From Nitrospirota bacterium (GTDB lineage: Bacteria; Nitrospirota; Thermodesulfovibrionia; UBA6902): a stretch of 45,481 nt of DNA. The notes under the pieces are model-generated. The model was given only the letters and a program-made list of their open reading frames with translations. It was not told where the DNA came from and did not search any database. The stretch covers positions 1 to 45,481 of the forward strand of contig JBFLVX010000003.1 in assembly GCA_040758255.1 (NCBI GenBank). Reading direction: 5' to 3'. The position numbers were made by a program, and so were the translations under genes. Shown here piece after piece: positions 18,175-38,976 of this stretch. Position 1 is the stretch's first letter, and every line of letters begins with the position of its first letter.

Positions 18175-18236
18175 AAATTAAGTCTCACTTGTATTTTTTG
18201 TCCATGTTCTTTGCTCTTGGTTCTGTGTTCTATCCT

Positions 18237-19905: not shown

Positions 19906-21018
19906 TCACCTCCTTTCTTTACCAGATTTTATGTCGGAAAGTTCCCTTAACAGCATTTCGTTATCGCCTCGTGATTTAACAGCAACCCTGATATAAGAGC
20001 TGCCAAGCCCTCTGAAGTTTGAACAATCTCTGACAAGGATGCCTTTTTCTCTCAGGCCTGAAACTATTCTTTCAGAGTTTTTTTCTTTCAATAAATAATA
20101 ATTCACACTTGACGGCAAGTACTCAACATTTAATTCCTGAAAACTCTTTTCGAGAAATTCTTTTTCTCTCTTTATCAATTCATGTGTTTTAGCAGCATAT
20201 TCATAATCTGCGAGAGCGGCGATTGCCGTCTTTTGGGCAAGGTTATTTACTGTCCACGGTTCTTTGAATTGCCTGATCTTATTAATTGAATCCTTATGAA
20301 AAACCCCGTACCCGATCCTTAATCCTGTAAGCGCATAAAACTTTGTCATTGACCGAAGAACTATCAAATATGGGTTCTCCTGAACATCCTGAATCACCGA
20401 TTCTTCAGGAACAAAATCAATGAACGCCTCATCAACAACAAGATAACATTTCATCTTCCTTGCCGCCTCGGCAATCGCAAGTACCTTGTCTCTCTTTAAA
20501 AGATGTCCTGTTGGGTTGTTAGGGTTGCAGAGGAAAATGAGTTGAGAGTTAAAAGAAAGAGCCTCGATTGTGGATATGAATTCGTCAGCGATTATCCTGA
20601 AGCTATTTTCTTCTTTTAACTCATAACTCTCAACTCTTAACTCCGAACTCAATCTGCACGCCCTCTCATATTCTGAAAATGTCGGCGTAGGGATGAGAAC
20701 GGTCTTAGGCTTTAGCGCGCGCGGAATTAGATAAATAAGCTCCGTACTCCCGTTGCCGCAGATGATCGTCTCAGGGTCAATGTCATGATATTCGGCAATC
20801 TTATGCCTCAGCATCTTTGTATCGGGATCGGGATAATTAACCAGACTGTTCAACTCCCTCTTTATCACGTCCTTCACCTTCTCTGAAATGCCGAGAGGAT
20901 TGATGGATGCGCTGAAGTCAATGAGCTTCTCTGCAGGGATACCGATCTCTTCCGCAATCCTGTAGATATTGCCGCCATGCTCAGATAAGTTTTGAGTTGT
21001 GGTTTTCTCTTTAATCAT
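19906..21018 (-). CDS. cobD: L-threonine-O-3-phosphate decarboxylase
   Basis: HGGN, DFSASINPLG, CNPNNPTG, VDEAF, RSMTKFYAL.GLR.GY. Confidence 0.9.
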   Translation of the reverse strand: MIKEKTTTQNLSEHGGNIYRIAEEIGIPAEKLIDFSASINPLGISEKVKDVIKRELNSLVNYPDPDTKMLRHKIAEYHDIDPETIICGNGSTELIYLIPRALKPKTVLIPTPTFSEYERACRLSSELRVESYELKEENSFRIIADEFISTIEALSFNSQLIFLCNPNNPTGHLLKRDKVLAIAEAARKMKCYLVVDEAFIDFVPEESVIQDVQENPYLIVLRSMTKFYALTGLRIGYGVFHKDSINKIRQFKEPWTVNNLAQKTAIAALADYEYAAKTHELIKREKEFLEKSFQELNVEYLPSSVNYYLLKEKNSERIVSGLREKGILVRDCSNFRGLGSSYIRVAVKSRGDNEMLLRELSDIKSGKERR

Positions 21019-22067
21019 AGAATGTTCCTCATATACAGCAGTATCAACGCAAGACCAAATCCAAACAGAGAGGTAATTTTAACAATGGATATGGCATTCT
21101 CTGAAGCATTGCTATACATTTCTTTAACTCCTGACTTTTCCTCGCCTATGTAAGGTTTCTCAACGAGCATCCCAGCGTAAAATGAAGGGCCTCCGAGCCT
21201 GACACCGAGCGCCCCAGCCATTGCAGCCTCCGGGATCCCGCTGTTCGGGCTTAAATGTTTCCTGCCGTCGCGGAGTAAAATGTTCAAACTGTTTGAACAT
21301 TTTAAGCCGGTTGAACGATTTGAACCGATATTCAGAACACGCATTAACTTGTTGATTGAGCTTAATATGGTTGTCGCAATAATTATTAGAGCCCCTGTTA
21401 TCCTAGCAGGGATAAAATTGACGACATCATCAAGCCTCGCAGAGGCCCATCCGAAGTTCTTGTACTTCTCATTCCTGTATCCAACCATTGAATCAAGCGT
21501 GTTGACCGCCTTGTAAGCCATAGCCAGCGGCAAGCCGCCAATGGCGAAGTAGAACATTGGGGCGATTATTCCGTCTGAAGCATTTTCAGAAAGCGTCTCG
21601 ATAACCGCCTTCAATACGCCTTTGTCGTCCAGTTCTTTTGTGTCCCTGCCGACGATCATACTAAGCTTTCTTCTCGCGCCTTCCTTATCCCCTCGATTCA
21701 CGGCGTCAATTACAGCCTTGCCGGATTTAACAAGGTCATTTATTGCGAGAGTCGTTGATGTGAGATATATAAGGATCGCGAAAAACAAATACGAAATGAG
21801 AAACGGGAAGCGGGAAGTAAGAAGTAGAGAATTAAGCGCATAAAATATTGAATATGTTGCTCCAACAATTATTATTACAAGGAGAATGCCCGCAAGCTTC
21901 TCTTTCAGTCTGTGTTCTGTGTTCTGTGTTCTACGCTCTCTTCTCAATACTTCCTCCATTTTTTCAATTCCCCATCCGATAAACCTCACGGGATGCGGCA
22001 GCCAATGGGGGTCGCCGATAAGCAGGTCCAATATGTATGCTCCCGTCAGGATTACCACCTCTGTCAT
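21015..22067 (-). CDS. cbiB: Adenosylcobinamide-phosphate synthase
   Basis: GDP...PHPV, IVGRDT, ENASDG, NTLDSMVGY, SPNSG. Confidence 0.92.
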   Translation of the reverse strand: MTEVVILTGAYILDLLIGDPHWLPHPVRFIGWGIEKMEEVLRRERRTQNTEHRLKEKLAGILLVIIIVGATYSIFYALNSLLLTSRFPFLISYLFFAILIYLTSTTLAINDLVKSGKAVIDAVNRGDKEGARRKLSMIVGRDTKELDDKGVLKAVIETLSENASDGIIAPMFYFAIGGLPLAMAYKAVNTLDSMVGYRNEKYKNFGWASARLDDVVNFIPARITGALIIIATTILSSINKLMRVLNIGSNRSTGLKCSNSLNILLRDGRKHLSPNSGIPEAAMAGALGVRLGGPSFYAGMLVEKPYIGEEKSGVKEMYSNASENAISIVKITSLFGFGLALILLYMRNIL

Positions 22068-23677
22068 AATTTACCCTTTGTTATGCAATGTTCCATCCCG
22101 ACCTGCCTGAGCATAAAACAGATGTCAACACTGCTCTTTAAAACATCCGCCCATTTATTGATCGCTTCCTCTTTTTCCGCCTGATAGTTAAAGCCGGATT
22201 GGGACTGAAGCCCTTTCCGTTCCCTAAGTGAATTCAACAACGCAGTGCGGAATTCATCGTTATCAAAGATGCCGTGTATGTACGTGCCCCAGACGTTTCC
22301 TTTAATTGAACCATCGGAGATTGAACGGTTTAAACCGTTTGAACCGTTTAAACGGTTAATCCTGAACAATCCAATATCACCTGTTGTCTGGCCCATATGT
22401 ATTTCATAGCCCTTCAATGAATTCTTATCACTCTTAACTCCTAACTCTAAACTCTGAACTATTTCCCCTTCCACCTGACATGTTGTCTTTGCCTTGTCGT
22501 AAGTTGTTTCAATATCAAGAAGCCCGAATCCTGCGATTTCTTTATGACCGCTTTCAACGCCGTGCGGGTCATAAATCTTTTTGCCAAGCATCTGATAGCC
22601 GCCGCAGATACCGGCAAGAGGGATGTCTTTTTCTGCAGCGGATTTCACACATGCCTCTATTCCGCTCTCTCTCAATAGAAGCAAATCGCTAACCGTATTC
22701 TTTGAGCCGGGGATTATAATGAGGTCGGCGTTTTGGATGTCATCTTCCCGCAGAGAATATTTCAGCTCAATATCTGGCTCATGGAGAAACGGTGCGAAGT
22801 CCGTGAAGTTTGAGATGTACTTTAACCGCAGGACAACAACTTTAATTGTTTTAAACGCTGAACGCTGAACGCTGAATGCTGAACGCCTTTCAAGCGACAA
22901 TCCATCCTCTTCATCAAGCCGCAGGTCAGGTTGATGGTACAAGGTGCCGATGACAAGCTTGCCTGTCTTATGCTCAATCATCCTCAATCCCGGACGGAGA
23001 ATATCCATATCGCCCCTGAACTTATTTACGATAAATCCCTTGATGTAATCGGCATCGGATAATTCCCCTCTATCAAGAGGAGTTAGGGGTGTGTTCCCCA
23101 CTTTAGCAAAGGGGGGCAAGGGGGGATTTTTCAACAACTCCACTGTCCCGTAAAAAGCTGCAAAGACACCCCCTTTATCTATATCTCCAACGAGGATCAC
23201 GGGGGCATCGGCATAACGCGCCATTCTCATATTCACAACATCTTCTCTCGTGAGATTGATCTCTGCCGGACTGCCCGCGCCTTCGATCACAATGAGGTCA
23301 TATTGTTTTGAAAGCCTGTCATATGCCGCAGTGATTACTTCCCATACTTTATCTTTAATTGAATAATATTCCTGCGCCTTCATAGAGGCATGCACCTTGC
23401 CGTTTAATATCACCTGACATCCTGCCTCGCCAGTTGCTTTGAGCAGCACAGGGTTCATGTCGTTTGACGGCTCGATGCCTGCGGCTTCAGCCTGAAACGC
23501 CTGCGCCCGTCCGATCTCTCCGCCCTCTTTTGTGATGAAGGAATTGAGCGCCATGTTCTGCGCCTTAAAGGGAGCGACCTTGATGCCCATGTCCCTGAAT
23601 ATCCTGCAGAGGCCTGCAACGATGACGCTCTTGCCCGCGCCGGAACCTGTTCCCTGTATCATTAATGCTTTAGCCAT
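22064..23677 (-). CDS. cobQ: Cobyric acid synthase
   Basis: GTGSGAGKS, FKAQNM, EGAGSPAE, ISNFTD, GICGGYQMLG, GYEIH, GTYIHG. Confidence 0.93.
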   Translation of the reverse strand: MAKALMIQGTGSGAGKSVIVAGLCRIFRDMGIKVAPFKAQNMALNSFITKEGGEIGRAQAFQAEAAGIEPSNDMNPVLLKATGEAGCQVILNGKVHASMKAQEYYSIKDKVWEVITAAYDRLSKQYDLIVIEGAGSPAEINLTREDVVNMRMARYADAPVILVGDIDKGGVFAAFYGTVELLKNPPLPPFAKVGNTPLTPLDRGELSDADYIKGFIVNKFRGDMDILRPGLRMIEHKTGKLVIGTLYHQPDLRLDEEDGLSLERRSAFSVQRSAFKTIKVVVLRLKYISNFTDFAPFLHEPDIELKYSLREDDIQNADLIIIPGSKNTVSDLLLLRESGIEACVKSAAEKDIPLAGICGGYQMLGKKIYDPHGVESGHKEIAGFGLLDIETTYDKAKTTCQVEGEIVQSLELGVKSDKNSLKGYEIHMGQTTGDIGLFRINRLNGSNGLNRSISDGSIKGNVWGTYIHGIFDNDEFRTALLNSLRERKGLQSQSGFNYQAEKEEAINKWADVLKSSVDICFMLRQVGMEHCITKGKL

Positions 23678-23680
23678 AGT

Positions 23681-24280
23681 TCACACGATAAAATTAATAT
23701 TTTTGACTACCGGATAATCCCACATCTCAATAATATTCAGACATCCGTAATCCTGTTCAACCCTGAATATATTCTCAAGCGGGATGCCTAACAGATGGCA
23801 GAGGATAACCCTGTTTATGCCGCCGTGAGAAACGATCGCAATATTGTCTCCTTTATGTTTTTCAATAATCTCATTGAAGATCTTCACCGCCCTGTCTCTC
23901 ACATCAACCGTGTTTTCACCATTTATCGGGCTGAACTCCAACGGGTTAGCTGCCCAAGCGTTAAATGCATCAGGCCACTTCTCCCTTATCTCATCAAAAG
24001 ACATCCCTTCCCATAAACCAAAATTCCGTTCTCTCAGTTCAGGCATGATTATTGGTTTTAACCCATGTGCTTCAGCGATAATTTCCGCGCTCTTTACAGC
24101 GCGTGAAAGGTCAGAGCAGTATAGAGCGTCTAATGATCCTGTCTTGACAAGATATCCTGCAACTCTCTTAATCTGTTCGATCCCGTTCGCGGACAAGGGC
24201 ACATCAATGTGCCCTTTGTATCTTTTCGTCTCCGCGCCCTCTGTCTCTCCGTGCCGGATCAGATAAATTTTTTTGACCAT
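23681..24280 (-). CDS. cobC: Alpha-ribazole phosphatase (histidine phosphatase)
   Basis: RHGET, SDL.RA, LRE.NFG.WEG, SHGG; operon context. Confidence 0.85.
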   Translation of the reverse strand: MVKKIYLIRHGETEGAETKRYKGHIDVPLSANGIEQIKRVAGYLVKTGSLDALYCSDLSRAVKSAEIIAEAHGLKPIIMPELRERNFGLWEGMSFDEIREKWPDAFNAWAANPLEFSPINGENTVDVRDRAVKIFNEIIEKHKGDNIAIVSHGGINRVILCHLLGIPLENIFRVEQDYGCLNIIEMWDYPVVKNINFIV

Positions 24281-25050
24281 ATCACCATACCCATTAAAAA
24301 TAATATCTCCGAAATTTCCGAGACCGCTCCGAATGTGTCGCCAGTCATGCCGCCGAAATTTTTGCCGGAGAATCGGACGGCGATAAGGCTGAAGAAATAA
24401 AGTACCGGCAACGCAACTAAAAACTGAAAACTAAAAACTGAAAACTGCGAACTTCGTCCGGCAGCAACCAGCGCAGCAAGTAGAATGAACAATACTGAAG
24501 CAGAGGCCGTTATGAGTTCCTTTACTCTGGTATGCTCAATGAATATCCTCCCGAGTCCATCCTGCCTCGCTGACCTGCCATGAAAGATCGCTGTGACCAT
24601 AGCCCATCGTGAGAAAACAGGCATCAGAAATATTGACAAATAATAGATGTCAAGCGATATGTTGAATGCCGCGTTCAGAAATAGATACTTCAGCAGTATC
24701 GCAAAGACTATCGCTATAACGCCGAAGGGCCCGACAGCGCTGTCTTTCATGATCGCCAGTTTTTTCTCTTTATCCTTTCTCGATGCTATAGCGTCAAACG
24801 TATCCGCAAGCCCGTCAAGGTGAAGCCCTCCGTTGATTATTATCATCAGAAGCAGAACAAGTCCGCTTGAGACCTCAACAGGAAAAACTTTCAGGAATAA
24901 TGCGGATAACATTACAAGTAATATTCCCTGCATCGCTCCGACAAGAGGAAAGAACGCCGTTGTTTTCCCGATCTCCTTTTCTGACAGATCGCCCATATCT
25001 CTTAAAGGAATAATCGTCAGAAACTGAAATGCAAGCAAAAGTTTATTCAT
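24259..25050 (-). CDS. cobS: Adenosylcobinamide-GDP ribazoletransferase
   Basis: FLT.IP, GGLHLDGLADTFD, MKDS.VG, GG.TGD..GA. Confidence 0.92.
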   Translation of the reverse strand: MNKLLLAFQFLTIIPLRDMGDLSEKEIGKTTAFFPLVGAMQGILLVMLSALFLKVFPVEVSSGLVLLLMIIINGGLHLDGLADTFDAIASRKDKEKKLAIMKDSAVGPFGVIAIVFAILLKYLFLNAAFNISLDIYYLSIFLMPVFSRWAMVTAIFHGRSARQDGLGRIFIEHTRVKELITASASVLFILLAALVAAGRSSQFSVFSFQFLVALPVLYFFSLIAVRFSGKNFGGMTGDTFGAVSEISEILFLMGMVIWSKKFI

Positions 25051-25083
25051 TTCTTAACTCTTTTAACTCATAACTCCCAACTC

Positions 25084-26142
25084 TCAACTTTTCTCTGACA
25101 CCCCTGCCTCTCCGAATGTCGCCATCTCTTTGTAAATCTTCAATCCCGCATCTATGACGAGCATGGCCAAAGCCGCGCCTGTTCCTTCGCCAAGCCTGAG
25201 GTCAAGATCAAGAACAGGCCTCAATCCTATCTTCTCAAGCATCGCTTTGTGTCCGACTTCCTGCGACATGTGCGCTGAGAACATATAGTCTCTTGCCTTC
25301 GGCTCAATGGAAAACGCGATGAGCGCTCCGGCAGTTGAGATGAAGCCGTCAATAACAACCGGCACCTTGTTTGCCGCAGCGCCGATGATCAGCCCGGCGA
25401 TTCCGGCAATCTCCGCGCCGCCTACTTTTGATAGCACATCAATGGCGTCTGAAGGATTGGGCTTGTTCAGTGCTATCGCATCTTTAATAACCTGCACCTT
25501 ATGTTTCCATGTGTCGTCATTTATCCCTGTTCCTCTTCCGGTTATCTCTTCAACTGATCTTCCGGTAAGAACTGCGGCGATTGCGCTTGAAGGTGTTGTA
25601 TTTGCAATCCCCATATCTCCGGTTCCGAATATTCTGTAGCCTTTTTTTACGTACTCATTTGCAAGCTCAATCCCGACGCTGATGCATTTCAAGGCTTCGT
25701 CACGTGTCATCGCAGGCTCTTTCCTCATGTTCTTTGTGCCTGATACGATTTTTCGTGATACGAAGAAATTATTTTTGATATCACCGAAATCATAATCAAC
25801 CCCCATGTCTACTACAACAACATCCGCGCCTGCGTGCCTTGCGAGCACATTAATGCCTGCGCCGCCGTTAAGAAAATTAAGCACCATCTGAGGCGTCACC
25901 GCCTTTGGAAATGCGGATACGCCTTCATCCGCAACGCCATGATCTCCCGCGAAAGTGAAGACAACCTTTTTATCAAGCTCGGGCATAGTCGCCTCAGTGA
26001 TCGAGACGACCTGTTTTGCAAACTCCTCAAGCCTGCCGAGGCTTCCCTGCGGTTTTGTCAGGCTGTCGAGCCGCTTCTGCGCCTGCTCGATGAATTTGCC
26101 GTTGACTGATGTAATGTTTAAAAGTGCTGCTTTTAATTCCAT
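25084..26142 (-). CDS. cobT: Nicotinate-nucleotide:DMB phosphoribosyltransferase
   Basis: [35 protein letters not shown]. Confidence 0.93.
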
Positions 26143-26164
26143 TGCGTTCTCCTTTTTGTTGTTT

Positions 26165-26689
26165 TTATCCTTTTATCTTTATCGGTATCCCGGCTGTTAC
26201 CAAATAAACCTCATCTGAGATCTCCGCGACCTTCTGATTTACATATCCCGCCGCATCCCTGAACCTCCTCGCAAGTTCGTTCTCAGGCACAATGCCCATG
26301 CCGACCTCGTTAGAGACGATAAAGAGTTTCGGGGTTTCGGGTTTCGGGTTTATTAAAACATCTATTAAATCATCTGTCTCTTTACCGAAATTCATATCGC
26401 CGCAAATCAAATTCGACAGCCAGAGTGTCAGGCAATCAAGCACGATAACGCTGTACTTATCCTTAATATCCGCAATAATCTCAGGCACCTTCAGCGGCTC
26501 TTCAAAAGTATCCCAGTCAGCGCCGCGTTCGTCTTTATGTTTCCTGATGCGCTCCTTCATCTCATCATCAAGCGCCTGAGCAGTGGCGATGTGAGCCTTT
26601 TGCCCTTTGATCTTCGCTGCCTCTCTCAACGCAAAAGAGCTCTTTCCGCTCCTCGTCCCGCCTATGACAAAGGTGATTCTGGATTCCAT
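26165..26689 (-). CDS. cobU: Adenosylcobinamide kinase/guanylyltransferase
   Basis: GG.RSGKS, RI..H...R, DCLTLW.SN, NEVG.GIVP. Confidence 0.93.
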
Positions 26690-27894
26690 TATCTTCCTTC
26701 CCGGTTAATCAAAGAAAATAATACCGCGTCAACCTCATCTATCAGCTCTTTGAACATCCCGCCGTGGCTTTTGGAGTCTGAAAACAACTCAAGCCTTTTA
26801 TCTTTAATCCTCTCGTCATCACATCTTTCATAGGTGATATGGCCCTTCTGCATAGCCTGTCTTTCAAGCAGCAGAAGTTTCTTGGCCTTTTCAATAAAAG
26901 GAATGAGCATCTCCATGATTCTTTTTATCTCATTGTCCGCGCTCTTCTCTTTTGTAATTTCCTTAATCATGATGTACAGAGTGTTGTACTCAAGCCCTCT
27001 TACGCCGCGTCTCCATTGCAGGAGCATAGGGTTTCTCCAGAACCAGAGAAAGTTCCGCTTGCCGAATATGATGAGTTCGTTTACCGTTCTTTCAAGCTCA
27101 ACAGTAAGTTTGGAGTTTACCTCCAAGCTTCCGCGCTTCCGCGCTTCCGCGTTAGCTTGAGACCCTCCAAGATATGTCCAAAGATTTGTTAAGACTGCCG
27201 CTCCATTCATATCATCCGGCGTGTCAAAATGCACGAGTGACAAGATCACTTTGCCTTTTCCATAACTGCCCTCAATTATTGAAGGCTCTCCTATCAGCCT
27301 CTCCGGATCAAGATTTATCCGGTAAATCTCTTCATGCTCTTTCCAGCCGCCATTAGCTTCTGTGTCCCCGACATTAAGGTCAGAGCTGAATGAATCAGGC
27401 AGCGCCTTCCCATATGAGGCAAGCACTTTAATTTCCTTGTCTTCAACATCAAACTGAGAAGGCCACCAGGCATGGAAAATATTTGAACCCTGATCCAGCC
27501 ATATCTGATGCTCATTTATATTCAGCTCTATCCTGCCGCTAAAGCTCGGCACTCTCTCTTTGGTGGGCCTTCTTTTTACATTCAACAGCCCGATGCCGCC
27601 TTCAGCCTTTGTTGCTAATCCTGCGCCTCCGCAGAAACCTAAATAGTTCCCTCCGTTCGCTACAAAATGTTGGATCGCGCTTCTTCCGGCTTCTCCAAGC
27701 GCCTTGCCCTTATTGGATGCCCATCCGCCCGGCACAAAAAGCATCCCATATTTATCAAGCGCGCCTCTCTTTATATCTTCCGCCCTTATCAGATCAAAAG
27801 GCAGGCCAAGTCCCTTCAGCGCCTTATAAGCCATAATGCCCCATAGAAAAGATTCATCCCACAAAAAAGCGGCTTTCTTTGTCCCGGTCTTCAT
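26689..27894 (-). CDS. BPL-N / class I glutamine-amidotransferase-like domain protein of unknown function
   Basis: LFVPGG, F...GG.YLGFCGGAG nucleophile elbow, YGKGKV.LS..H. Confidence 0.65.
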   Translation of the reverse strand: MKTGTKKAAFLWDESFLWGIMAYKALKGLGLPFDLIRAEDIKRGALDKYGMLFVPGGWASNKGKALGEAGRSAIQHFVANGGNYLGFCGGAGLATKAEGGIGLLNVKRRPTKERVPSFSGRIELNINEHQIWLDQGSNIFHAWWPSQFDVEDKEIKVLASYGKALPDSFSSDLNVGDTEANGGWKEHEEIYRINLDPERLIGEPSIIEGSYGKGKVILSLVHFDTPDDMNGAAVLTNLWTYLGGSQANAEARKRGSLEVNSKLTVELERTVNELIIFGKRNFLWFWRNPMLLQWRRGVRGLEYNTLYIMIKEITKEKSADNEIKRIMEMLIPFIEKAKKLLLLERQAMQKGHITYERCDDERIKDKRLELFSDSKSHGGMFKELIDEVDAVLFSLINREGR

Positions 27895-27895
27895 T

Positions 27896-31137: not shown

Positions 31138-32394
31138 CTATCTCTCTCCTTTAACAATAAAGATCGGATTAAGAGCGCTCATATGCCTCTTCTGATTGAT
31201 CATCTTTGACTTTGAGACAGAAACTTCTGTCACATCAACCCTAAAACCATCCTCTTCAAGGCATTTCATTGCGCTGTTCAGCGTTTCAATTGTTACCGCA
31301 TTGATAACCACAATACCCTGCCGCATTTTTTCAGATATTGAACGCACAATTTCATCCAGCGTGCCCCCGCTTCCTCCAATGAAGACCCTGTCAGGCGTTG
31401 GAAGGCCGTCTAATACCTGAGGCGCTTCGCCTTTTATGACGCGAAGATTGCGTATTCCAAAAGACTCTTTATTATTTTCAATATGCTTTATCCGATCCTC
31501 ATTCTTTTCAATAGCAAAGACCTCTAACTTGTGACAAAGCCTTGCCGCTTCTATTGATATGGAACCCGAACCTGCCCCGATATCCCAGAGGATTCCGGCC
31601 TCAGGAAGCCTCAGTTTGTGAGTCGTCACCGCCCTGACTTCGTCCTTGGTGATCATGCCCTTTGAATGCTGAATCTCATCTTCTCTAAGGCCAAATCTGA
31701 ATTCTGTGCTCTGCGTTCTGTGCTCTGTGTTCTGAATTATTATCACTACATTAGGATGCTCAAAAGTTTGTTTCGCAATATCTTCCGGTACCCCCTCTGT
31801 AATCTTTTCATCAGGATAGCCGAGCCTTTCACACACAAACATTTTCAGATCTGAACCGCATGCTGACAGCTTATTTGCTATTGCTGAAGGATTATTCTCT
31901 TTGTCAGTGAGTATCCCGATCTTATGATGCGTCTTAAGCAGATGCGGAATATCGCCGATCTCGTATTCAAGGCTTCTTCTCTTCTCAGGGTCCGGGCCGG
32001 TATGCAGGCTCATAAGGAACGCATCGCTCCACGCCTCTTTTATCCTCGCAAAGGCAACCTGAATGCTTGAGAGGTCGGGCAGAATCTCCACATCTTCTTT
32101 ATCAAACTCTCTAACAACCATCCTGCCGATGCCGAAGAAGAGCGGGTCGCCGGAAGCAAGAAGTGTGATAATCCTCGATTCCGGATTTTGCATTTCAGAT
32201 TTAATGAACTCCATCGTCTCATAAACATTATTGATTATCCTGAGCCTATTCTTTATATCCTCGAATTCTTCATATCCCTTCAGGACTTCAAGCAGCCTGT
32301 CGTTTGCAAGAATAATATCCGAACTCCGGATTATCTCCAGCGCCCTTTTATCAAAAGGTTTGTACCCCATTCCTATAACGTACAATTTACTCAT
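31138..32394 (-). CDS. cbiET: Fused precorrin-6Y C5,15-methyltransferase (decarboxylating)
   Basis: ASGDPLFFGIG, ERLG...E, ITK.EVRA, WDIGAGSGS, FIGGSG. Confidence 0.9.
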   Translation of the reverse strand: MSKLYVIGMGYKPFDKRALEIIRSSDIILANDRLLEVLKGYEEFEDIKNRLRIINNVYETMEFIKSEMQNPESRIITLLASGDPLFFGIGRMVVREFDKEDVEILPDLSSIQVAFARIKEAWSDAFLMSLHTGPDPEKRRSLEYEIGDIPHLLKTHHKIGILTDKENNPSAIANKLSACGSDLKMFVCERLGYPDEKITEGVPEDIAKQTFEHPNVVIIIQNTEHRTQSTEFRFGLREDEIQHSKGMITKDEVRAVTTHKLRLPEAGILWDIGAGSGSISIEAARLCHKLEVFAIEKNEDRIKHIENNKESFGIRNLRVIKGEAPQVLDGLPTPDRVFIGGSGGTLDEIVRSISEKMRQGIVVINAVTIETLNSAMKCLEEDGFRVDVTEVSVSKSKMINQKRHMSALNPIFIVKGER

Positions 32395-33523
32395 TGCCTG
32401 CTATTATCTCTCCTGTGTAAGATACGAGTTTGGCGCTTACAGGAACCTTCGCAATATCCTCAGCATATTTTCCGGCCGCATCACATATTTTTTGAAATAA
32501 CTTCGGATTGACATAATCAAATATTTCCCGCGCGGTATTAAATGCCCGATCCGGGATATTTATTCCGGCTGAATGCAGAAACTGCACCGCCTTCTTCATA
32601 TCGATAGCTCCGAATCTGACGTGCGTCTGGGGCGTTGCCATGGCGATCTTGAGCATCTTGGCCCATTGTGCGCAGAGACTGACCTTTTTGAACCCGTGTC
32701 TTTTTGCTTCCTGTAAAGAATATTCAAGATAGTCGCCCATGAGCACATACGACTCCTCCGGCAGATTGTATTTTTTCATATGTGCCTTTTCAGACGTTCT
32801 TCCTGCGGAAAGCACTATCTCCTTAATCCCCGCTGCCTTTGCCACATCCATTGATGAAGTTATGGTCGCTGTCCATGCCTCGGTTGATACAGGTTTTACA
32901 ATGCCTGTAGTGCCGAGTATTGAGATGCCGCCGAGAATGCCGAGCCGTGAATTCAATGTCTTCTTTGCCAATTCCTCTCCGTTAGGGACAGAGATGGTAA
33001 CTTCAAGAGTTTTGAGATTTAACTCATAACTCTTAACTCCTAACTCAAAACTTTCTTTCACTGCCTCTGCTATCATTCTCCTCGGCACAGGATTTATTGC
33101 CGGTTCGCCGACAGGAACTGGAAGCCCGGGCTTTGTTACCATGCCGACCCCTTTGCCGCCTTTTATTACTATTTCACCCTCACCCTTGCCCTCTCCCCTC
33201 AAGGGAGAGGGAACGTCTGTGTTCTGTATTCTAACTTCTGCCATTATCTCCGCCCCATGCGTCACGTCAGGGTCATCACCCGCATCTTTGATGACTGAAG
33301 CCTGTGCAATAGAGTTATGAGTTATAAGTTTCGAGTTATGAATTTTGAATGTATGTCTGCTGCCATCTGGAAAAGGAATTTCAACATCCTTGATTTTTCC
33401 CGAACTCTTAACTCCTAAATCCAAACTCATTAACTCTAACGCTGCCGCCTTTGCAGCCGCAGCCGCGCATGCGCCTGTTGTATATCCTGTTTTCAGCCCC
33501 TTCTTCACTCCGGCCAATTTCAA
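32387..33523 (-). CDS. cbiD: Cobalt-precorrin-5B C1-methyltransferase
   Basis: GYTTGACAAAAA, KDAGDDPDVTHG, AINPVPR, N.RLGILGGISILGTTG. Confidence 0.93.
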   Translation of the reverse strand: MKLAGVKKGLKTGYTTGACAAAAAKAAALELMSLDLGVKSSGKIKDVEIPFPDGSRHTFKIHNSKLITHNSIAQASVIKDAGDDPDVTHGAEIMAEVRIQNTDVPSPLRGEGKGEGEIVIKGGKGVGMVTKPGLPVPVGEPAINPVPRRMIAEAVKESFELGVKSYELNLKTLEVTISVPNGEELAKKTLNSRLGILGGISILGTTGIVKPVSTEAWTATITSSMDVAKAAGIKEIVLSAGRTSEKAHMKKYNLPEESYVLMGDYLEYSLQEAKRHGFKKVSLCAQWAKMLKIAMATPQTHVRFGAIDMKKAVQFLHSAGINIPDRAFNTAREIFDYVNPKLFQKICDAAGKYAEDIAKVPVSAKLVSYTGEIIAGNE

Positions 33524-34374
33524 CCCTTTCCCGCTGAAGCTTCCAATGTCTTTATTATCTCGCGTCTCGCCTCGCCGATTGTGAGAGGCACGCGTTGAAA
33601 ATCCATCTTATCCTCATGCTTCAGCCTGTAGATCAGCTCTGCCATTTGAGGAAGCCTCAGCTTTATATTCGCCATATCCTCAGGCGCGTTGAAGACCTCT
33701 TCCGGTGTGCCGCCTCTTGTGAATTTTCCTTTGCTCAAAATATAAAGACGGTCAAGAAAAACAGGCACAAGGTCTACGCTGTGGGTAGCCATTATTATCG
33801 TTACCCCATTATCCCGGTTAAGCTTCTGAAGCAGCCTCATCATCCTGTATTCTCCCATCGGGTCTAATCCGGCGGTCGGTTCATCCAGCAGAAGCATTTC
33901 ATGCCCCATCGCCAGAAGCCCGGCAATGCACGCCCTCTTCCTCTGCCCGAAGCTCAGGTTATGGACTGATTTTCTTTCCAATCCTGAAAGCTCGACCTCG
34001 CGCAATGCGCTCGTCACCCGTTGTTTTACGTCATCTGCGTCAAGCCCCATATTTAAAGGCCCGAAGGCAACATCCTCAAAGAGTGTCGGCGCAAAGAGCT
34101 GGTCATCCGGATTCTGAAAGACAAGCCCCACCTTTTTATAGATCTGCTTTGGTGAAAGATCTTTTATATCAATTCCATCAAGCAGCACACTGCCTTCAAA
34201 GTTTCTCATGAGTCCGTCCATTACGCGAAGCAGTGTGGTCTTGCCGGAACCATTCGCGCCGAGCAGCCCGATAAATTCACCTTTCTTTACATCAAGGCTT
34301 ATGCCGAACAGCGCATGCGTGCCGTCAGCATATTTGTATGAAATATTCTTGACTGATAACATTACATCATCCAT
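33520..34374 (-). CDS. cbiO: Cobalt ECF transporter ATPase
   Basis: GANGSGKT, FQNPDDQLF, LSFGQRKR, DEPTAGLDP; start taken as ATG 34374. Confidence 0.9.
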   Translation of the reverse strand: MDDVMLSVKNISYKYADGTHALFGISLDVKKGEFIGLLGANGSGKTTLLRVMDGLMRNFEGSVLLDGIDIKDLSPKQIYKKVGLVFQNPDDQLFAPTLFEDVAFGPLNMGLDADDVKQRVTSALREVELSGLERKSVHNLSFGQRKRACIAGLLAMGHEMLLLDEPTAGLDPMGEYRMMRLLQKLNRDNGVTIIMATHSVDLVPVFLDRLYILSKGKFTRGGTPEEVFNAPEDMANIKLRLPQMAELIYRLKHEDKMDFQRVPLTIGEARREIIKTLEASAGKG

Positions 34375-35108
34375 ATTGCGCCTGCAAAAATTATTAATAC
34401 CACGGCTATCGCAATCTCGCCGAATCTCAGCGGACTGCATTTGAGCACCGGCATATCGCCTGTATAGCCGCGCTGGATCATAGCCTCCGAAGTCTTCTGG
34501 CTCTGGTCAAAACCCCTTATCACGAGCGACCCCGCAAGCGTACCGAATGACCTCATGCCTTTTCTCACTCCCGCGTAACCGAGCCGGTTCTTCTGAGCAT
34601 TGTAGATAGTCATCCCATCCTCAAGAAATACAAAAATATACCGGTAGGCAAACATCATGATCTCTACAAACTGCTTCGGCATCCTGAGCCACGAGAGCCC
34701 TGACAGAAGTTCAGTAAATGGCGTGGCGAATCCGAATGCTATTAAAAGCGACACCCCGCCGAGAATTCTGCTTGCGATGATTAATCCCTCAATGAGCCCG
34801 TCTTTATGCCCTGTTAAAGTGAGAAGCGGAATGGAGAAGATCACATCTTTTCCTGTGAAGAAAAACTTCAACAAAAGAATCATCAAGGCGAAAAAAAGAG
34901 GCTGTGAATACCGTAGCAGCAGAACTCGCGCCGGTATCCTCATCTTCACGCAAAGCAAAAAACAACTTGCGGCGATGAGCAGAGGAAACAGTATCCCTTT
35001 GCAGCTCAGCACCATTACGAGCAGCGCAATGACAACAATGAGCTTTGCCCTCACATCAATCTTTGCAAGGATATGTTCACCTGTAAAATGTTCAGAAAAT
35101 ATCTTCAT
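34362..35108 (-). CDS. cbiQ: Cobalt ECF transporter T component
   Basis: D.R.KL, YRYIFV, AQ..RLGY, AM..RGY. Confidence 0.88.
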   Translation of the reverse strand: MKIFSEHFTGEHILAKIDVRAKLIVVIALLVMVLSCKGILFPLLIAASCFLLCVKMRIPARVLLLRYSQPLFFALMILLLKFFFTGKDVIFSIPLLTLTGHKDGLIEGLIIASRILGGVSLLIAFGFATPFTELLSGLSWLRMPKQFVEIMMFAYRYIFVFLEDGMTIYNAQKNRLGYAGVRKGMRSFGTLAGSLVIRGFDQSQKTSEAMIQRGYTGDMPVLKCSPLRFGEIAIAVVLIIFAGAIWMM

Positions 35109-35446
35109 GTCTGCTTTGTGTGCTCTGTTGTGAGAGTTCCTTTTTCCGTCAGCATCCTCCAGTAATACCCTCCTGCAAATCCGCCGACTGCGCCGGCAAG
35201 GAGAAATACAAAGAGGAGCAGATCCCCCTGATCCGTATTGATAAAAGGTTCTCTCGCGGTTCTTCCATGTTCTTCAGCATATTTTTCAACAACAGATTCA
35301 TCAACCCCGCCCCATTTGTCAGCGGCAAGTGCAGAAGTGGGAAGTAAAAAGCAAGAAGTGAGAAGTAAAAAAACAGTGAATAGTGAATAGTGAATAGTGA
35401 ATAGTAAACGACTTAACCAGTTTTTAGTTTTAACTCTTAACTTCAT
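35105..35446 (-). CDS. CbiN-like small cobalt-transport subunit
   Basis: W.GVDESVVEK.A, GDLLLFVFL..G..GGF..GY; lies between cbiM and cbiQ; N-terminus built largely from heptamer repeats. Confidence 0.7.
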   Translation of the reverse strand: MKLRVKTKNWLSRLLFTIHYSLFTVFLLLTSCFLLPTSALAADKWGGVDESVVEKYAEEHGRTAREPFINTDQGDLLLFVFLLAGAVGGFAGGYYWRMLTEKGTLTTEHTKQT

Positions 35447-36216
35447 GCCGTTACCTCCTCAGGCTTTAAGACACGCATTTTCACAAGCAAGTCAGGCCTC
35501 TTCTTGTAAAGCAGTACGACCATACCTGCTGTCATGGCGCCTTCAAGTATTCCCAGCGGGAATTGTGTCGGGATGAAGGCTATCAGGATCTTCCAGAAAA
35601 GAGGCATGAATGGTGAATCTCCCCGTATGCCTGACGCGAGTTCAATGGATGTAGCGGTGTATGTTGCCCAGTCTGCAAGGACACCCGCCATAAAGCCCGC
35701 GATCCAGAGATTAGCCTTCAACGCCCGCAGCCCCCTGAATGTCAGGTATCCCGCAAAAGAACCCATCACGCCCATTGATACTATATCCGCCCCCCATGTG
35801 CTCAAGCCGCCGTGAGCTAAAAACAGAGCCTGAATTAGCAATGCCGCTGCCGTGACAAGTATGCTTATCGCAGGCCCGACCAATATGGCTGATATTCCCG
35901 TGCCTGCTGGATGAGAGCATGTGCCTGCTGTCGGCACGGGAATCGGCATGCATGAGATAATAAAGACAATCGCAGCCATGAGTCCTACGAGAGGTTTGAA
36001 GGAGAGGTCAACAGCGGAGAGCTTTTTAAGTTTATATAAACCATACGCTACAAAGGGTATCGCAATAGCAAACCAGAACGCCGCCCAGTTAAACGGCAGT
36101 ATACCTTCTGAAATGTGCATGGCGTGAGCGTCGGGAATAGCAAGCAGTAAGCAATAGGCAGTAAGAAAAAAAAGCCTGCAACTTTTAACTCTAAAGTCTA
36201 CACTCTTAACTCTCAT
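35443..36216 (-). CDS. cbiM: Cobalt ECF transporter S component
   Basis: Leader followed by MHISEG, GTCSHP.G, AHGG, TQ.P..I.EG. Confidence 0.92.
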   Translation of the reverse strand: MRVKSVDFRVKSCRLFFLTAYCLLLAIPDAHAMHISEGILPFNWAAFWFAIAIPFVAYGLYKLKKLSAVDLSFKPLVGLMAAIVFIISCMPIPVPTAGTCSHPAGTGISAILVGPAISILVTAAALLIQALFLAHGGLSTWGADIVSMGVMGSFAGYLTFRGLRALKANLWIAGFMAGVLADWATYTATSIELASGIRGDSPFMPLFWKILIAFIPTQFPLGILEGAMTAGMVVLLYKKRPDLLVKMRVLKPEEVTA

Positions 36217-37211
36217 TTCTCCCCTGCCATTTTCAATAATGCATTTACAATCGCCACTGCCACAGGCGTGCCGCCTTTCCTGCTTAAATTAGTGATGAAT
36301 GGAAATGTTTGTTCAGCAAGCAGCGCCTTTGACTCAATCGCCTTCACAAACCCGACCGGAACGCCGACAACGAGGAGTTCGGAGTTGAGAGTTCGGAGTT
36401 GAGGGTTATTCAGAATCTCAATGGTCTTTAGCAGCGCGGTAGGCGCATTGCCGATGGCGATGATTCCGATATTGTTCTTCTCTTTTAATGCCGATTCAAT
36501 TCCAATTTCAGACCTTGTTTTATTTTCTGACCCATGACCTCTGCCCTCTGACCCCTCTAAATTACAAACAACCTTTCCGCCCCATCTCGATAACAGTTTT
36601 TTATTTATCCCGGCCTTCACCATTTCGATGTCAGTAAGAATATCTTTCCCGGCCTTGATAGCGGCGAGGCCGGTCTTAATTGCATCAGGATGAAACACGA
36701 GGCTATGCCTGAATTCAAAATCAGCGGTAGAATGTATCACTCGCTTAATGATCGGCAGTCTTTCTGCCGGAACATCGCTTAAGTCAATCTCTTCAGAGAT
36801 TATCTCGAAGCTCTTCTTCTCAATCTCTTCCGGTTTTAGTCCCGGCGCAGACTGGATCCTCTCATGTACGATCTGAGCCAGCTTGCTGTGTATGCCGAGA
36901 GGCTCGGTGTAAATAAATTCCACATGAGGGAACGCCTCACCAGCCTCCCTTATTATCCCCGGAATATCCGATGTCACATGCATGCCGCTCATTAAGAAAT
37001 ACGGATGAATGATAATTTTCACTGCTCCGTCATGAACGCAGCCTTTGATGGCCTCCATTATGTCCGGCCGCGCAAATTGGAGATACGCAGGCCGAACGCA
37101 GTGCTTGCCGCATCCGGGATGCATCATGTTGTGAAGAAGTTTTGCAACGTGCTCAAGATTATTTGCCTCTTTTTTGGGACTGCCGTGTCCTGCGAGAAGA
37201 ATTATTTCCAT
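36213..37211 (-). CDS. cbiC: CbiX-type cobaltochelatase fused to precorrin-8X methylmutase CbiC
   Basis: N-terminal GHGS, PYFL..G.H..DIP; C-terminal IE.KSF, R.IHSTAD, GNAPTAL, PVGFV, RKGG. Confidence 0.88.
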   Translation of the reverse strand: MEIILLAGHGSPKKEANNLEHVAKLLHNMMHPGCGKHCVRPAYLQFARPDIMEAIKGCVHDGAVKIIIHPYFLMSGMHVTSDIPGIIREAGEAFPHVEFIYTEPLGIHSKLAQIVHERIQSAPGLKPEEIEKKSFEIISEEIDLSDVPAERLPIIKRVIHSTADFEFRHSLVFHPDAIKTGLAAIKAGKDILTDIEMVKAGINKKLLSRWGGKVVCNLEGSEGRGHGSENKTRSEIGIESALKEKNNIGIIAIGNAPTALLKTIEILNNPQLRTLNSELLVVGVPVGFVKAIESKALLAEQTFPFITNLSRKGGTPVAVAIVNALLKMAGEK

Positions 37212-38659
37212 GTTATTCCTTTACAAAAATTTATGAAATTTCCTGCAATCTTTTTATTGCTTCCAAAGTGAATATGAATATAACTGCCGAACGTGTTTTT
37301 GACCATGTATCCTTCGTCAAGAAGGGCATTGCCAGCACCGTCTTTCAGCTTGTATATATGGGTTTTGGGTTCTGTGTTCTGTGTTCTGTCTGCAATCTCC
37401 GAATAATGAAATTCATGCCCGCGAAGTGTCATGCCCTTCTCGCCGAGTATGGAATCCTGCTTCAATACCGCTTCTCTATAGCCAAGTTTGGAGAGCTTAG
37501 CTTTCATCTGCGTCTCAAATGGAAATATCCCCGCCATTTCATAAAATTCCCCCTTGGAAAAGGGGGGAAGGGGGTTGTTGTCTATTGCTCTTTTATTAGT
37601 CCATATTCCTTCTGTCAGATACATGAATCCGCCGCATTCCGCGTATACGGGCTTCCCTTCATCTGACCAGTTTTTTACAGATGCCAGCATGGATTTGTTG
37701 CCGGATAACTGTTCAGCATAAATTTCAGGGTAACCGCCGCCGATATACAGAGCGTCAGCATCATCCGGGATTTTACTGTCCGACAAAGGGCTGAATAAAA
37801 GAATCTCCGCTCTCGCTTCTCTCAGCAGATCAAGATTGTCTTCATAGTAAAAGCAGAATGCTTTATCATAAGCAACAGCAACCTTTAAGCCGGAAGTTCG
37901 GAAGCTCGGAAGTTCGTCATGGTTTGACAGGCTCACCATGACAGTGTCACCCTGAGCTTGTCGAAGTGTGTGCTGCTGCGCTACTGTATCAACATCCACA
38001 TGCTTCAGCACCGCATCTGCTAATCTATCAATCGCTTCCGCTGAAATCGGCTCTTCTTCCGCTACAGTTAAACCGAGATGCCTGTGCGGGATTTCAAAAT
38101 TTAGCTCTCTCGGCAGATAGCCAAGCACAGGCACATCGTGAACGCTCTCTTTAAGCCGTTTGAAGTGATTCTCAGATGCAACACGATTAAAGATAACACC
38201 GGCGAAACAGAGTTCAGAGTTTTTACTGCTTTGCCCCTTTGTGCCTTTGTCCCTTTGTCCCTTATAAGAGGTAAACCCTTTTACCACCGCTCCCGCGCTC
38301 TCTGCCATTCCATAAGCATCAACTACGAGTATAACGGGAAGATTGAGAGTGTGTGCAAGGGATGCCGTGCTGAGTTTTCCGTCATACAATCCCATCACGC
38401 CTTCTACAACAGAAATATCCGTGTCCGCTGAATATTTCTGAAAACAATCCCTGACGTAATCCTCTCCGCACATATAGAGGTCGAGATTCCGGGAAGTTCT
38501 GCCGGTGATAAGCTTGTGAAGTCCCGCGTCAATAAAATCCGGGCCTGCCTTGAATGATTGGACGCTTAAGCCTTTTTTCTTCAGAGCCGCAAGGATGCCG
38601 AGCGTTACCGTTGTCTTTCCGCATCCGCTGTGAGTGCCTGCAATGACTACACCATGCAT
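37202..38659 (-). CDS. cbiA: Cobyrinate a,c-diamide synthase
   Basis: SGCGKT, FK.GPDFID, EGVMGL.DG, RHLGL, AFCFYY, GGYPE, AECGG, GHEFHYS; start moved to ATG 38659. Confidence 0.93.
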   Translation of the reverse strand: MHGVVIAGTHSGCGKTTVTLGILAALKKKGLSVQSFKAGPDFIDAGLHKLITGRTSRNLDLYMCGEDYVRDCFQKYSADTDISVVEGVMGLYDGKLSTASLAHTLNLPVILVVDAYGMAESAGAVVKGFTSYKGQRDKGTKGQSSKNSELCFAGVIFNRVASENHFKRLKESVHDVPVLGYLPRELNFEIPHRHLGLTVAEEEPISAEAIDRLADAVLKHVDVDTVAQQHTLRQAQGDTVMVSLSNHDELPSFRTSGLKVAVAYDKAFCFYYEDNLDLLREARAEILLFSPLSDSKIPDDADALYIGGGYPEIYAEQLSGNKSMLASVKNWSDEGKPVYAECGGFMYLTEGIWTNKRAIDNNPLPPFSKGEFYEMAGIFPFETQMKAKLSKLGYREAVLKQDSILGEKGMTLRGHEFHYSEIADRTQNTEPKTHIYKLKDGAGNALLDEGYMVKNTFGSYIHIHFGSNKKIAGNFINFCKGITWK

Positions 38660-38660
38660 A

Positions 38661-38700
38661 TAAAAATCCCCGGCCTTCAATAAAGAAAGCCGGGGATAAA
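38661..38700 (-). terminator. Riboswitch expression-platform hairpin (terminator and/or RBS sequestrator) just before the cbiA ATG
   Basis: Minus strand atccccggc-loop-gccggggat followed by tttt, then atATG. Confidence 0.65.
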
Positions 38701-38760
38701 AGCCAAAATAACCTTTATCCTCACAGCCTCTTACCACGAAGGCTTCTTCAGTGAGGTATA

Positions 38761-38934: not shown

Positions 38935-38945
38935 CAACGCAGATG

Positions 38946-38976
38946 ATTATAACTTATAAGCTTTGGAGAATGTCAA
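38946..38976 (-). promoter_or_regulatory. Sigma70-like promoter of the cob operon
   Basis: TTGACA-19 bp-TATAAT about 11 nt upstream of the riboswitch. Confidence 0.6.

Follow-up and report, generated by a model that had tools for sequence, protein, structure and literature searches.

A family of short heptamer and octamer repeat arrays is concentrated in the cobalamin operon of a Nitrospirota bacterium

Bacterial coding sequence is expected to lose tandem repeats whose unit length cannot be divided by three, and contingency loci consist of long perfect tracts that switch genes for surface structures by frameshift. Here we describe short direct-repeat arrays inside the cobalamin (cob) operon of a groundwater Nitrospirota bacterium, carried by a 45,481-nt contig (C3, analysed at its full length and called the window below) of an assembly (G000) with 228 contigs, 2.36 Mb, a GC content of 44.9% and 93% completeness. 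Heptamer arrays have been described in other phyla. Direct repeats of TAACTGA, two to six units long, occur at many loci of marine Beggiatoaceae, some cyanobacteria and Bacteroidetes (PMC4679880), and G-rich heptamers, GGGAATC and GGGGA(T/C)T, occur in Xanthomonas and Nostoc, where about four units are preferred and the arrays are scarcer than expected within coding sequence (PMC4692102, which also names three STRR heptamers of Calothrix). The Rickettsia palindromic elements are repeat DNA inserted in frame into metabolic genes (PMC10969869). Such arrays are therefore not without precedent; the initial annotation of the window was reminded of STRR heptamers and Rickettsia palindromes but knew of no described mechanism. 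In the main text of freely accessible literature, we found no report of heptamer arrays in Nitrospirota or of a coding hot spot at the level of an operon, and the name Nitrospirota has 0 occurrences in PMC4679880.

The operon (19906-38737, minus strand) contains 20 genes of the anaerobic route of cobalamin synthesis together with the CbiMNQO cobalt transporter, as indicated by NCBIfam equivalog matches. Having cbi and cob enzymes and CbiMNQO behind a cobalamin riboswitch, it belongs to the riboswitch-controlled anaerobic cobalamin operon type. Tandem Repeats Finder (TRF) returned 40 rows for the window, 29 of them within 20617-38263, and the 11 rows outside were nearly all two-copy. After filtering for a period of 7 or 8 and a minimum of 2.8 copies, 20 arrays were retained, of which 19 lie within the cob operon and one is intergenic, and TRF detected none in the non-cob genes of the window. 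The 9-mer array at 22321-22357 is additional to these. All 20 genes of the operon are open reading frames (ORFs), and the arrays extend from 20617 to 38263, between the riboswitch and the end of cobD. These data agree with the initial annotation, which had placed repeats inside intact ORFs of the operon and had seen none in recQ, znu, fab or namZ. Among the approximately 24 positions that it listed, 20 were recovered by TRF at a score of at least 30, and four (21280-21330, 32170-32200, 33405-33440 and 36526-36558) are weak, with autocorrelations of 0.43-0.52.

The density of arrays in the 18.7-kb operon is about 1.0/kb, compared with 0.057/kb in the remaining genome, and the loops of the cob proteins hold arrays with units of 7-8 bases, in frame, at 10-20 times the background rate. 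The whole genome contains 157 arrays, while three triplet-shuffled genomes contain 11, 6 and 6. Arrays are thus present far above chance and dispersed through the genome, as STRR-like repeats are. Merging left 153 arrays, and with the crude longest-ORF calls that we used genome-wide, 76 of these lie inside ORFs, 24 partly inside and 53 between ORFs. The 77 arrays outside or across ORF ends fall in about 10% of the DNA, indicating that arrays are generally enriched outside genes; the cob operon shows the opposite. Of the 153 merged arrays, 19 fall in this operon, which makes up 0.8% of the genome; the genome rate would predict 1.07 (Poisson P ~1e-17) and the rate of non-ORF DNA 6.2 (P ~3e-5). 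The density in the operon is about three times that of non-ORF DNA (~0.33/kb). The other 134 arrays are elsewhere and about half of the whole set is outside ORFs, which leaves the proposal of a process writing specifically into this operon unsupported.

The units of the arrays are drawn from a restricted set common to many loci. The 117 heptamer arrays use 63 units, compared with about 109 (minimum 101) in 500 random draws, and an AACT/AGTT core is present in 48 of the 117 arrays, compared with about 6 (maximum 14) in random draws. The most frequent units are AACTCTT, AACTAAG, GGGGTCA and the octamer AAAGGCAC, each found in seven arrays, followed by CAGAACA with six. The set of units is non-random and the same units turn up in unrelated genes, which argues against slippage on random seeds. 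Arrays in the operon, in other ORFs, across ORF ends and in intergenic DNA are alike, with about four units, 29 bases and 81% match; with 3-6 units the arrays are short, most are imperfect (median match 84%), and four of those in the operon are perfect according to TRF (Table 1). No conserved core was found within the units, since mismatches are distributed almost uniformly over the positions (4.02 vs 3.80 invariant columns), and the AACT core shows no strand preference within genes (8 sense, 9 antisense). It is well supported that these segments form a genome- and lineage-wide family of short direct-repeat arrays with units of 7 or 8 bases, about 3-6 copies and around 80% match, and it is equally well supported that the vocabulary of this family is restricted to AACT-core heptamers, GGGGTCA, CAGAACA and CTTTGTGC-type octamers.

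Outside the operon, 20 of the 40 remaining array-bearing genes were scanned with Pfam, and matches were obtained to PriA, LpxK, lipoate ligase, sensor kinases, P-type ATPases, rubrerythrin, peptide deformylase, the ATPase B subunit and others. A further 11 array-bearing genes were named from their translations by eye, and we take them to include CarA (carbamoyl-phosphate synthase), PurL (phosphoribosylformylglycinamidine, FGAM, synthase), MetG (methionyl-tRNA synthetase), Mqn-like menaquinone enzymes and components of a metal efflux pump. A second CobB/CobQ-like amidotransferase gene, located outside the operon (C2:16345-17769), also bears an array. Seventeen pairs of arrays are adjacent, and the pairs outside ORFs are mostly inverted, folding at -15 to -50 kcal/mol. 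Intergenic arrays often stand 3-40 bases from their reverse complement and form with it hairpins with heptamer-repeat stems, for example at C1:8952-9007, C12:3020-3100, C27:14056-14154 and C59:10978-11074, among others.

Tandem doublets of TAACTGA were absent from the genome (0), where only related AACT-core units occur, as were those of GGGAATC (0), and the units that we take to be STRR1-3 gave 0 tandem doublets each. Like the TAACTGA repeats (PMC4679880), the arrays are heptamers present at multiple loci, with a related AACT core and no evident mechanism of spread, and an effect of frame cycling on translation has been discussed for the former. They differ in that the TAACTGA repeats are mainly intergenic and have one unit, whereas here there are many units, about half of the arrays are in ORFs and one operon is a hot spot. 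With the heptamers of Xanthomonas and Nostoc (PMC4692102) they share dispersal, heterogeneous units and the preference for about four units; those repeats are, however, depleted in coding regions, and GGGGTCA is just one among many units here. As with the Rickettsia palindromic elements (PMC10969869), inserts are in frame in unrelated metabolic genes, encode recurrent peptides and occupy sites compatible with the fold. The Rickettsia elements are about 150 bases long, non-tandem and divided into defined families, whereas the segments described here have 20-70 bases, are mostly tandem heptamers and are focused on one operon. The arrays also resemble contingency loci in having non-triplet units inside ORFs, but they are short, degenerate and in frame, and they reside in cytoplasmic cofactor enzymes. 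The arrays therefore have the form of the heptamer-repeat group and the behaviour of the Rickettsia elements, without the defining unit of the one or the element structure of the other, and it is well supported that they correspond, in Nitrospirota, to the heptamer arrays known from cyanobacteria, Beggiatoaceae and Xanthomonas.

In the proteins, the arrays encode recurrent peptides, and the four foreign peptides pointed out in the initial annotation are all present: TQNTEHR-like sequences in CbiB, CbiET and CbiA, ELGVKS-like sequences in CobQ, CbiD and CobD, SAFSVQR in CobQ and FTIHYSL in the CbiN-like protein. Repeat peptides recur in genes outside the operon as well. The gap fraction at each array, scored against up to 40 distant orthologues per gene, ranged from 0.0 to 0.9 and was mostly above the gene mean (0.013-0.10), whereas at residues 441-453 of CobQ, 274-284 of CbiA and 61-71 of CbiD it was near zero, so that several arrays replace a variable loop of similar length. 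This is the case for the cobQ 9-mer array (gap fraction 0.06) and for the cbiA array at 37887-37916 (0.0). The segments are thus insertions in part, as had been predicted for all of them, and replacements in part. In alignments of CbiD (11 relatives) and CobQ (14 homologues) the arrays fall at hypervariable sites, such as that of 33403-33440 in cbiD, where other repeat peptides are found in relatives and short loops in distant homologues. Four palindrome-like repeats that are not tandem lie in frame in cobQ, cbiD and cbiA (Table 1). In an AlphaFold model of CbiD (mean predicted local distance difference test score, pLDDT, 76.7) three of the four repeat segments are low-confidence coil; residues 165-167 (array 33020-33052) are coil with pLDDT below 50, and residues 103-114 (palindrome 33189-33212) also have pLDDT below 50. 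The alignment of CbiD to the solved structure 1sr8 was too weak for placing loops. Taken together, arrays in ORFs are mostly found in variable loops, linkers and N-terminal leaders.

The arrays turn over quickly between strains. We compared the window with assembled contigs of four public runs (X1-X4), which are 88-99% alike and in which rare variants would not show, and observed that the strain contigs break exactly at arrays, replacing or missing individual ones. The perfect AGTGAAT array at 35375 corresponds to 57 bases here and to 24 others in X2 and X3, the cbiA array at 38229 to 52 bases here and 67 others in X1 and X3, cbiB 21275-21394 to 118 bases here and 73 others in X3 and X4, and a stretch of cobD to 47 bases here and 68 in the strain contig. 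In cobQ, the palindrome-like repeat at 23063-23132 has 72 bases here and 15 in X3, a contig of which also breaks at 22300/22368. The five readable length differences (57, 33, 15, 45 and 21 bases) are all multiples of three. In relatives, the reading frame of CbiD of G020 shifts inside an 8-mer array, and the CbiD genes of G008 (C39:24383-25455) and G027 (C17:3762-4809) have internal deletions in the conserved part together with a change of frame and look like decaying genes. These differences suggest that the array process is blind to frame and that selection sorts its products, in agreement with the proposal that in-frame events are kept by selection.

Comparison with the closest relative, L013, revealed many lineage-specific in-frame insertions and deletions of repeat peptides on both sides and a few shared arrays. 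L013 has the cobD array 20617-20651, a longer form of the cbiB array 21909-21932, and the cobQ arrays 22430-22460 and 22854-22886, the latter with 87% base identity. At 36132-36241, the X1 and X3 contigs contain 1145 extra bases between cbiM and cbiX-cbiC, with the array 36187-36213 at the junction, and G019 and G025 have a gap of 1-1.4 kb between the same genes. From these observations, a gene seems to have been lost from this genome at this point.

The enrichment coincides with the cob transcription unit and is seen again in five other genomes, a stronger pattern than the initial annotation could know. In these relatives the cob genes have 0.94-1.63 arrays/kb and the DNA outside 0-0.43/kb: G019 has 11 arrays in 11.7 kb of cob genes and 0 in 29 kb outside on the same contig (background 0.11/kb), G025 has 32 in 20.9 kb and 11 in 25.8 kb outside (background 0.35/kb), G023 has 18 in 12.4 kb and 0 in 2.5 kb outside (background 0.24/kb), G029 has 24 in 14.7 kb and 3 in 11.4 kb outside, and G031, the genome of L013, has 20 in 13.7 kb and 17 in the 118.8 kb of another contig (C35). 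Arrays were also found in cob genes of loci labelled Nitrospiria, Deltaproteobacteria and Omnitrophota, and 59 of the 92 cob loci compared are without any. No arrays were present in the 4-kb cbiD loci of G011 (0.014/kb) and G002 (0/kb), and G001, from the same genus, has 0.042 arrays/kb. Other clusters of arrays in relatives involve ferrochelatase and amine-oxidase genes together with signalling genes, a glycosyltransferase cluster, and a menaquinone gene beside bamA. CbiD was found in nine of 18 relatives of the family and not in G001, which is 100% complete. The recQ and fabF-like neighbours of the operon match contig C35 of G031, and no cob gene occurs in the 118.8 kb read.

Since the limits of the hot spot agree with those of the transcription unit and relatives show it too, its cause should be a property of the cob unit. 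The explanation that we consider the best as a whole, and which we put forward tentatively, is a genome-wide array family of frame-blind origin, sieved by selection, for which the cob unit is a low-cost sink. Arrays would arise or be copied throughout the chromosome regardless of frame, through template switching or slippage at favoured seeds, and the same process would probably make the intergenic arrays, many of which form inverted hairpin pairs. Selection would then purge arrays that shift the frame, bring in a stop or strike the folded core; the survivors in genes would be those in frame, stop-free and mostly in variable loops, domain linkers or N-terminal leaders, and small palindrome-like repeats may enter the same sites. 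For the concentration in cob, the least certain step, our best guess is that the unit is mostly turned off through its B12 riboswitch, is needed only at trace flux and is often dispensable in communities that share B12, so that in-frame loop insertions would carry the smallest cost in this unit; after fixation, their clean deletion would be difficult and they would accumulate.

Several observations weigh against this explanation. The density in cob, three times that of non-ORF DNA, is not predicted by relaxed retention alone, and plain slippage fails to explain the restricted vocabulary. Identities of the cob proteins with their G031 counterparts are 66-84%, compared with 61-66% for three neighbouring non-cob proteins, and those with G019, G023 and G025 are about 60%, compared with medians of 50-56% for others, a comparison blurred by paralogue matches. 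Codon adaptation is 0.637 in cob and 0.648 in the rest (P = 0.22), although the bias is weak and the reference consists of seven genes from the ribosomal contig. Some array-bearing genes, such as those for rubrerythrin, peptide deformylase and the ATPase B subunit, are not obviously of low abundance; the cbiD array 33312-33341 lies in a modelled beta hairpin with pLDDT of about 77-82 and not in a loop; G009 has only 5 arrays in 15 kb of cob genes (0.33/kb); and G013 has a background of 0.22/kb and none in its 4-kb cbiD locus. Relaxed selection, as judged by protein identity, found no support, because the cob proteins are no more diverged than others. Loss of mismatch repair found none either: MutS and MutL are each above the cut-off in 27 of 31 genomes, including G000, and array-rich and array-poor genomes are not separated (MutL was not above the cut-off in G012, G016, G022 and G025). 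We also observed that G025 (87% complete) combines the highest background sampled with no MutL above the cut-off, which could be due to incompleteness.

That the cob unit is a conserved hot spot, in which arrays are either written faster or kept for acting on the riboswitch-controlled mRNA or its DNA, is possible but doubtful. In the former case, which we regard as rather unlikely, arrays would be written faster in the transcription unit itself and selection would merely trim them; candidate causes are transcription-associated template switching as the riboswitch opens under B12 starvation, and frequent recombination or transfer of the operon. A density above even that of non-ORF DNA, boundaries that coincide with the transcription unit, with clean flanks in G019 and in the window, and cob proteins that are not less conserved, so that weaker selection is not evident, are all consistent with it. 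The same is true of the patchy distribution of the operon in the family, with recQ and fabF-like neighbours lacking cob genes in G031, and of the wholesale swapping of arrays between strains, beyond changes in length. No mechanism is visible in the sequence, however, clusters in unrelated operons show that cob is not the sole place, and the GC content of third codon positions (0.505 in the operon vs 0.496 in the genome) gives no compositional sign of recent foreign origin. Dependence on NrdJ, with replication stress under B12 starvation, was tried as a cause and rejected for lack of co-variation with arrays: NrdJ is present in 31 of 31 genomes and NrdD in three (G007, G012 and G019), and G019, which has both, is still enriched. 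As for function, the arrays could be cis-acting nucleic-acid elements, for instance sites at which a protein recognises a 7-base period in RNA or DNA, and would then be retained in the 19-kb riboswitch-controlled mRNA for tuning its stability, processing or translation, with the peptides as a by-product. The vocabulary common to different families, the narrow size of about four units, as in the Xanthomonas and Nostoc arrays (PMC4692102), the hairpins of the intergenic inverted pairs and the regulatory role proposed for the TAACTGA arrays (PMC4679880) point in this direction. Where an array is kept in both genomes, 274 of 442 third codon positions are the same (0.62), compared with 17200 of 36642 (0.47) elsewhere, and four arrays shared with L013 have 86-91% base identity where the third positions of their genes agree at 0.49-0.58; the excess is suggestive but biased, because it requires that both sequences are still periodic, and agreement falls to the background (0.46) where only one genome has the array. 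Moreover, the many units differ at the same site between relatives, so that no single site is conserved, the AACT core lacks a strand preference in genes, mismatches are almost even over the unit and arrays are lost in strains without visible harm. We therefore find a function of this kind unlikely.

It is also unlikely, to a slightly greater degree, that the arrays and palindromes spread by copy-and-paste as miniature mobile elements, comparable to the Rickettsia palindromic elements or to small dispersed repeats in Nostoc, with in-frame copies being retained. Unrelated genes do contain identical units and peptides, two of the four in-frame palindrome-like repeats are clearly inserted (gap fractions of 0.88 and 1.0, against 0.58 and 0.41 for the others), and L013 has more such repeats. 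The cobQ element is lacking in a related strain, where 15 bases replace the 72, and is missing from 11 of 14 other aligned CobQ proteins; L013 and L014 have an insert at the same site, and L039 (Brocadia) has an unrelated insert at a different one. On the other hand, neither target duplications nor terminal inverted repeats nor constant ends were observed, the best family, that of the cobQ element, has at most four other, overlapping matches in the genome, its fold is not above shuffles (z -1.25), and the arrays vary in unit and length. Thus neither the defined ends or fold nor the many copies of a palindromic or miniature inverted-repeat element were found. In addition, the enrichment in cob of 14-mers present at least four times in the genome is weak, about 2.6-fold (17 of 804 in-ORF intervals), and no transposase turned up nearby, although no search was aimed at transposases. 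A contingency switch, by which slippage of non-triplet units would turn cob genes on and off in a population mixing B12 producers and scavengers, is very improbable. It would suit the units of 7 or 8 bases, the frame change inside an array in CbiD of G020, the cost of B12 synthesis and the same-genus relative without CbiD, but the arrays are short and mostly imperfect, 20 of 20 genes are open here and the readable differences between strain contigs, which would not show rare variants, preserve the frame. Finally, the possibility of an artefact of assembly or binning, which a fragmented assembly of 228 contigs might suggest, is negligible, given that like arrays occur in the cob operons of independent assemblies, that the X1 contig (~96% alike) passes through the perfect array at 35375 unchanged and gapless, and that the frames are intact.

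The genes and repeats of the window are listed in Table 1. A whole-genome search revealed no second cobalamin riboswitch, the copy upstream of cbiA being the only one. The closest public CobQ is 76% identical and comes from metagenome-assembled Nitrospirae/Nitrospirota. In cbiH, no ATG, GTG or TTG precedes the conserved N-terminus IYIVGIGPG (28477-28620) and the frame overlaps the stop of cbiG; an uncommon start codon, a programmed shift out of cbiG or a single-base error of the assembly could account for this. Neither CbiJ nor a corrinoid adenosyltransferase was recognised within the operon, and for this reason the BPL_N-like protein might supply a missing step of the pathway; this protein is conserved in the cob operons of five of five relative contigs examined (48-63% identical). 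The sole ribonucleotide reductase detected in the genome (93% complete) is the B12-dependent NrdJ (C84:5414-7114), and DNA synthesis would therefore depend on B12. In G019, an nrdD gene (class III, B12-independent) is located within the cob operon between cbiN and cbiQ (C10:17499-19223).

Table 1. Genes, riboswitch, arrays and other repeats of the window. Gap fractions are against distant orthologues.
Feature	Coordinates	Strand	Evidence	Peptide	Gap fraction
cobalamin riboswitch, directly upstream of cbiA	38748-38948	(-)	Rfam RF00174, 98.6 bits		
cbiA	37202-38737	(-)	NCBIfam		
cbiX-cbiC fusion	36213-37211	(-)	NCBIfam		
cbiM	35443-36216	(-)	NCBIfam		
cbiN-like	35105-35446	(-)	no family matched in Pfam scan		
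cbiQ	34362-35108	(-)	NCBIfam		
cbiO	33520-34440	(-)	NCBIfam		
cbiD	32387-33523	(-)	NCBIfam		
cbiET (CbiE, residues 6-218; CbiT, 248-368)	31138-32394	(-)	NCBIfam		
cbiL	30418-31137	(-)	NCBIfam		
cbiF	29648-30421	(-)	NCBIfam		
cbiG	28618-29739	(-)	NCBIfam		
cbiH	27896-28477	(-)	frame reads on upstream without canonical start		
BPL_N-like gene, 401 amino acids	26689-27894	(-)	weak Pfam BPL_N match		
cobU	26165-26689	(-)	NCBIfam		
cobT	25084-26142	(-)	NCBIfam		
cobS	24259-25050	(-)	NCBIfam		
cobC	23681-24280	(-)	NCBIfam		
cobQ	22064-23677	(-)	NCBIfam		
cbiB	21015-22067	(-)	NCBIfam		
cobD	19906-21018	(-)	NCBIfam		
period-7 array, intergenic, sole one outside operon	18205-18231	not assigned	TRF		
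array TAACTCA x5.0, 78% match, cobD	20617-20651	(-)	TRF	LSSELRVESYEL	0.11 (gene mean 0.025)
weak 9-mer periodicity (TTGAAC-type), cbiB	21280-21330	(-)	not by TRF; autocorrelation 0.47 at period 9		
array GAAGTAA x3.1, cbiB	21814-21836	(-)	TRF	LNSLLLTS	0.24
perfect array TCTGTGT x3.4, cbiB	21909-21932	(-)	TRF	RTQNTEHR	0.49
9-mer array AACCGTTTA x3.8, cobQ	22321-22357	(-)	TRF	NRLNGSNGLNRSI	0.06
array ACTCTTA x4.4, cobQ	22430-22460	(-)	TRF	IVQSLELGVKS	0.14
array AACGCTG x4.7, cobQ	22854-22886	(-)	TRF	RRSAFSVQRSAF	0.23
dispersed palindrome-like repeat, in frame, cobQ	23063-23132	(-)		LKNPPLPPFAKVGNTPLTPLDRGE	0.88
array AACTGAA x4.7, cobS	24415-24447	(-)	TRF	QFSVFSFQFLV	0.33
array GTTTCGG x3.6, cobU	26326-26351	(-)	TRF		0.26
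perfect 8-mer array GCTTCCGC x3.1, BPL_N-like gene	27127-27151	(-)	TRF		
array CTGACCC x4.3, cbiG N-terminal extension	29615-29644	(-)	TRF	EGVRGQRSGVS	0.56
array TCTGTGC x4.6, CbiE-CbiT junction of cbiET	31702-31734	(-)	TRF	QNTEHRTQSTE	0.26
array TAACTCA x4.7, cbiD	33020-33052	(-)	TRF	SFELGVKSYEL	0.42
short palindrome, in frame, cbiD	33189-33212	(-)		VPSPLRGEG	1.0
array GAGTTAT x4.3, cbiD	33312-33341	(-)	TRF	IHNSKLITHNS	0.09
weak AACTCNN array, cbiD	33403-33440	(-)	autocorrelation 0.43	SLDLGVKS	
array AAGTGAG x5.6, N-terminal hydrophobic part of CbiN-like protein	35327-35366	(-)	TRF		
perfect array AGTGAAT x4.4, CbiN-like protein	35375-35405	(-)	TRF	FTIHYSLFT	
array AACTCTA x3.9, cbiM leader	36187-36213	(-)	TRF		
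array GGAGTTC x3.9, cbiX-cbiC	36374-36407	(-)	TRF		
weak CTGACCC-type array, cbiX-cbiC	36526-36558	(-)	autocorrelation 0.52 at period 7		
perfect array GTTCTGT x3.0, cbiA	37369-37389	(-)	TRF	DRTQNTEP	0.29
palindrome-like repeat, in frame, cbiA	37545-37578	(-)		NNPLPPFSKGEF	0.58
8-mer array CGGAAGTT x3.2, cbiA	37887-37916	(-)	TRF	DELPSFRTSGL	0.0
dispersed repeat, in frame, cbiA	37918-37966	(-)	at most 2 overlapping matches elsewhere	LRQAQGDTVMVSLSNHD	0.41
8-mer array CTTTGTCC x4.4, cbiA	38229-38263	(-)	TRF	KGQRDKGTKGQS	0.9

For practical purposes, inserts of this kind distort gene calling, orthology scores and structure prediction in metagenome assemblies from groundwater. The sharply bounded hot spot may also reveal the origin of heptamer arrays, for which the parts of the papers drawn on here offer no mechanism in cyanobacteria, Beggiatoaceae or Xanthomonas (PMC4679880, PMC4692102). 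If arrays are written faster in the cob unit or kept for acting on its mRNA or DNA, a mechanism that writes or uses repeats would be tied to one transcription unit and common to several groundwater lineages, and the remodelling of enzyme loops would be its side effect. In at least six genomes the arrays form the loops of almost all enzymes in a pathway of 20 genes while the catalytic cores are still conserved, and they thus represent a natural experiment on the tolerance of bacterial enzymes to foreign peptides and a source of rapid turnover of loops and linkers.

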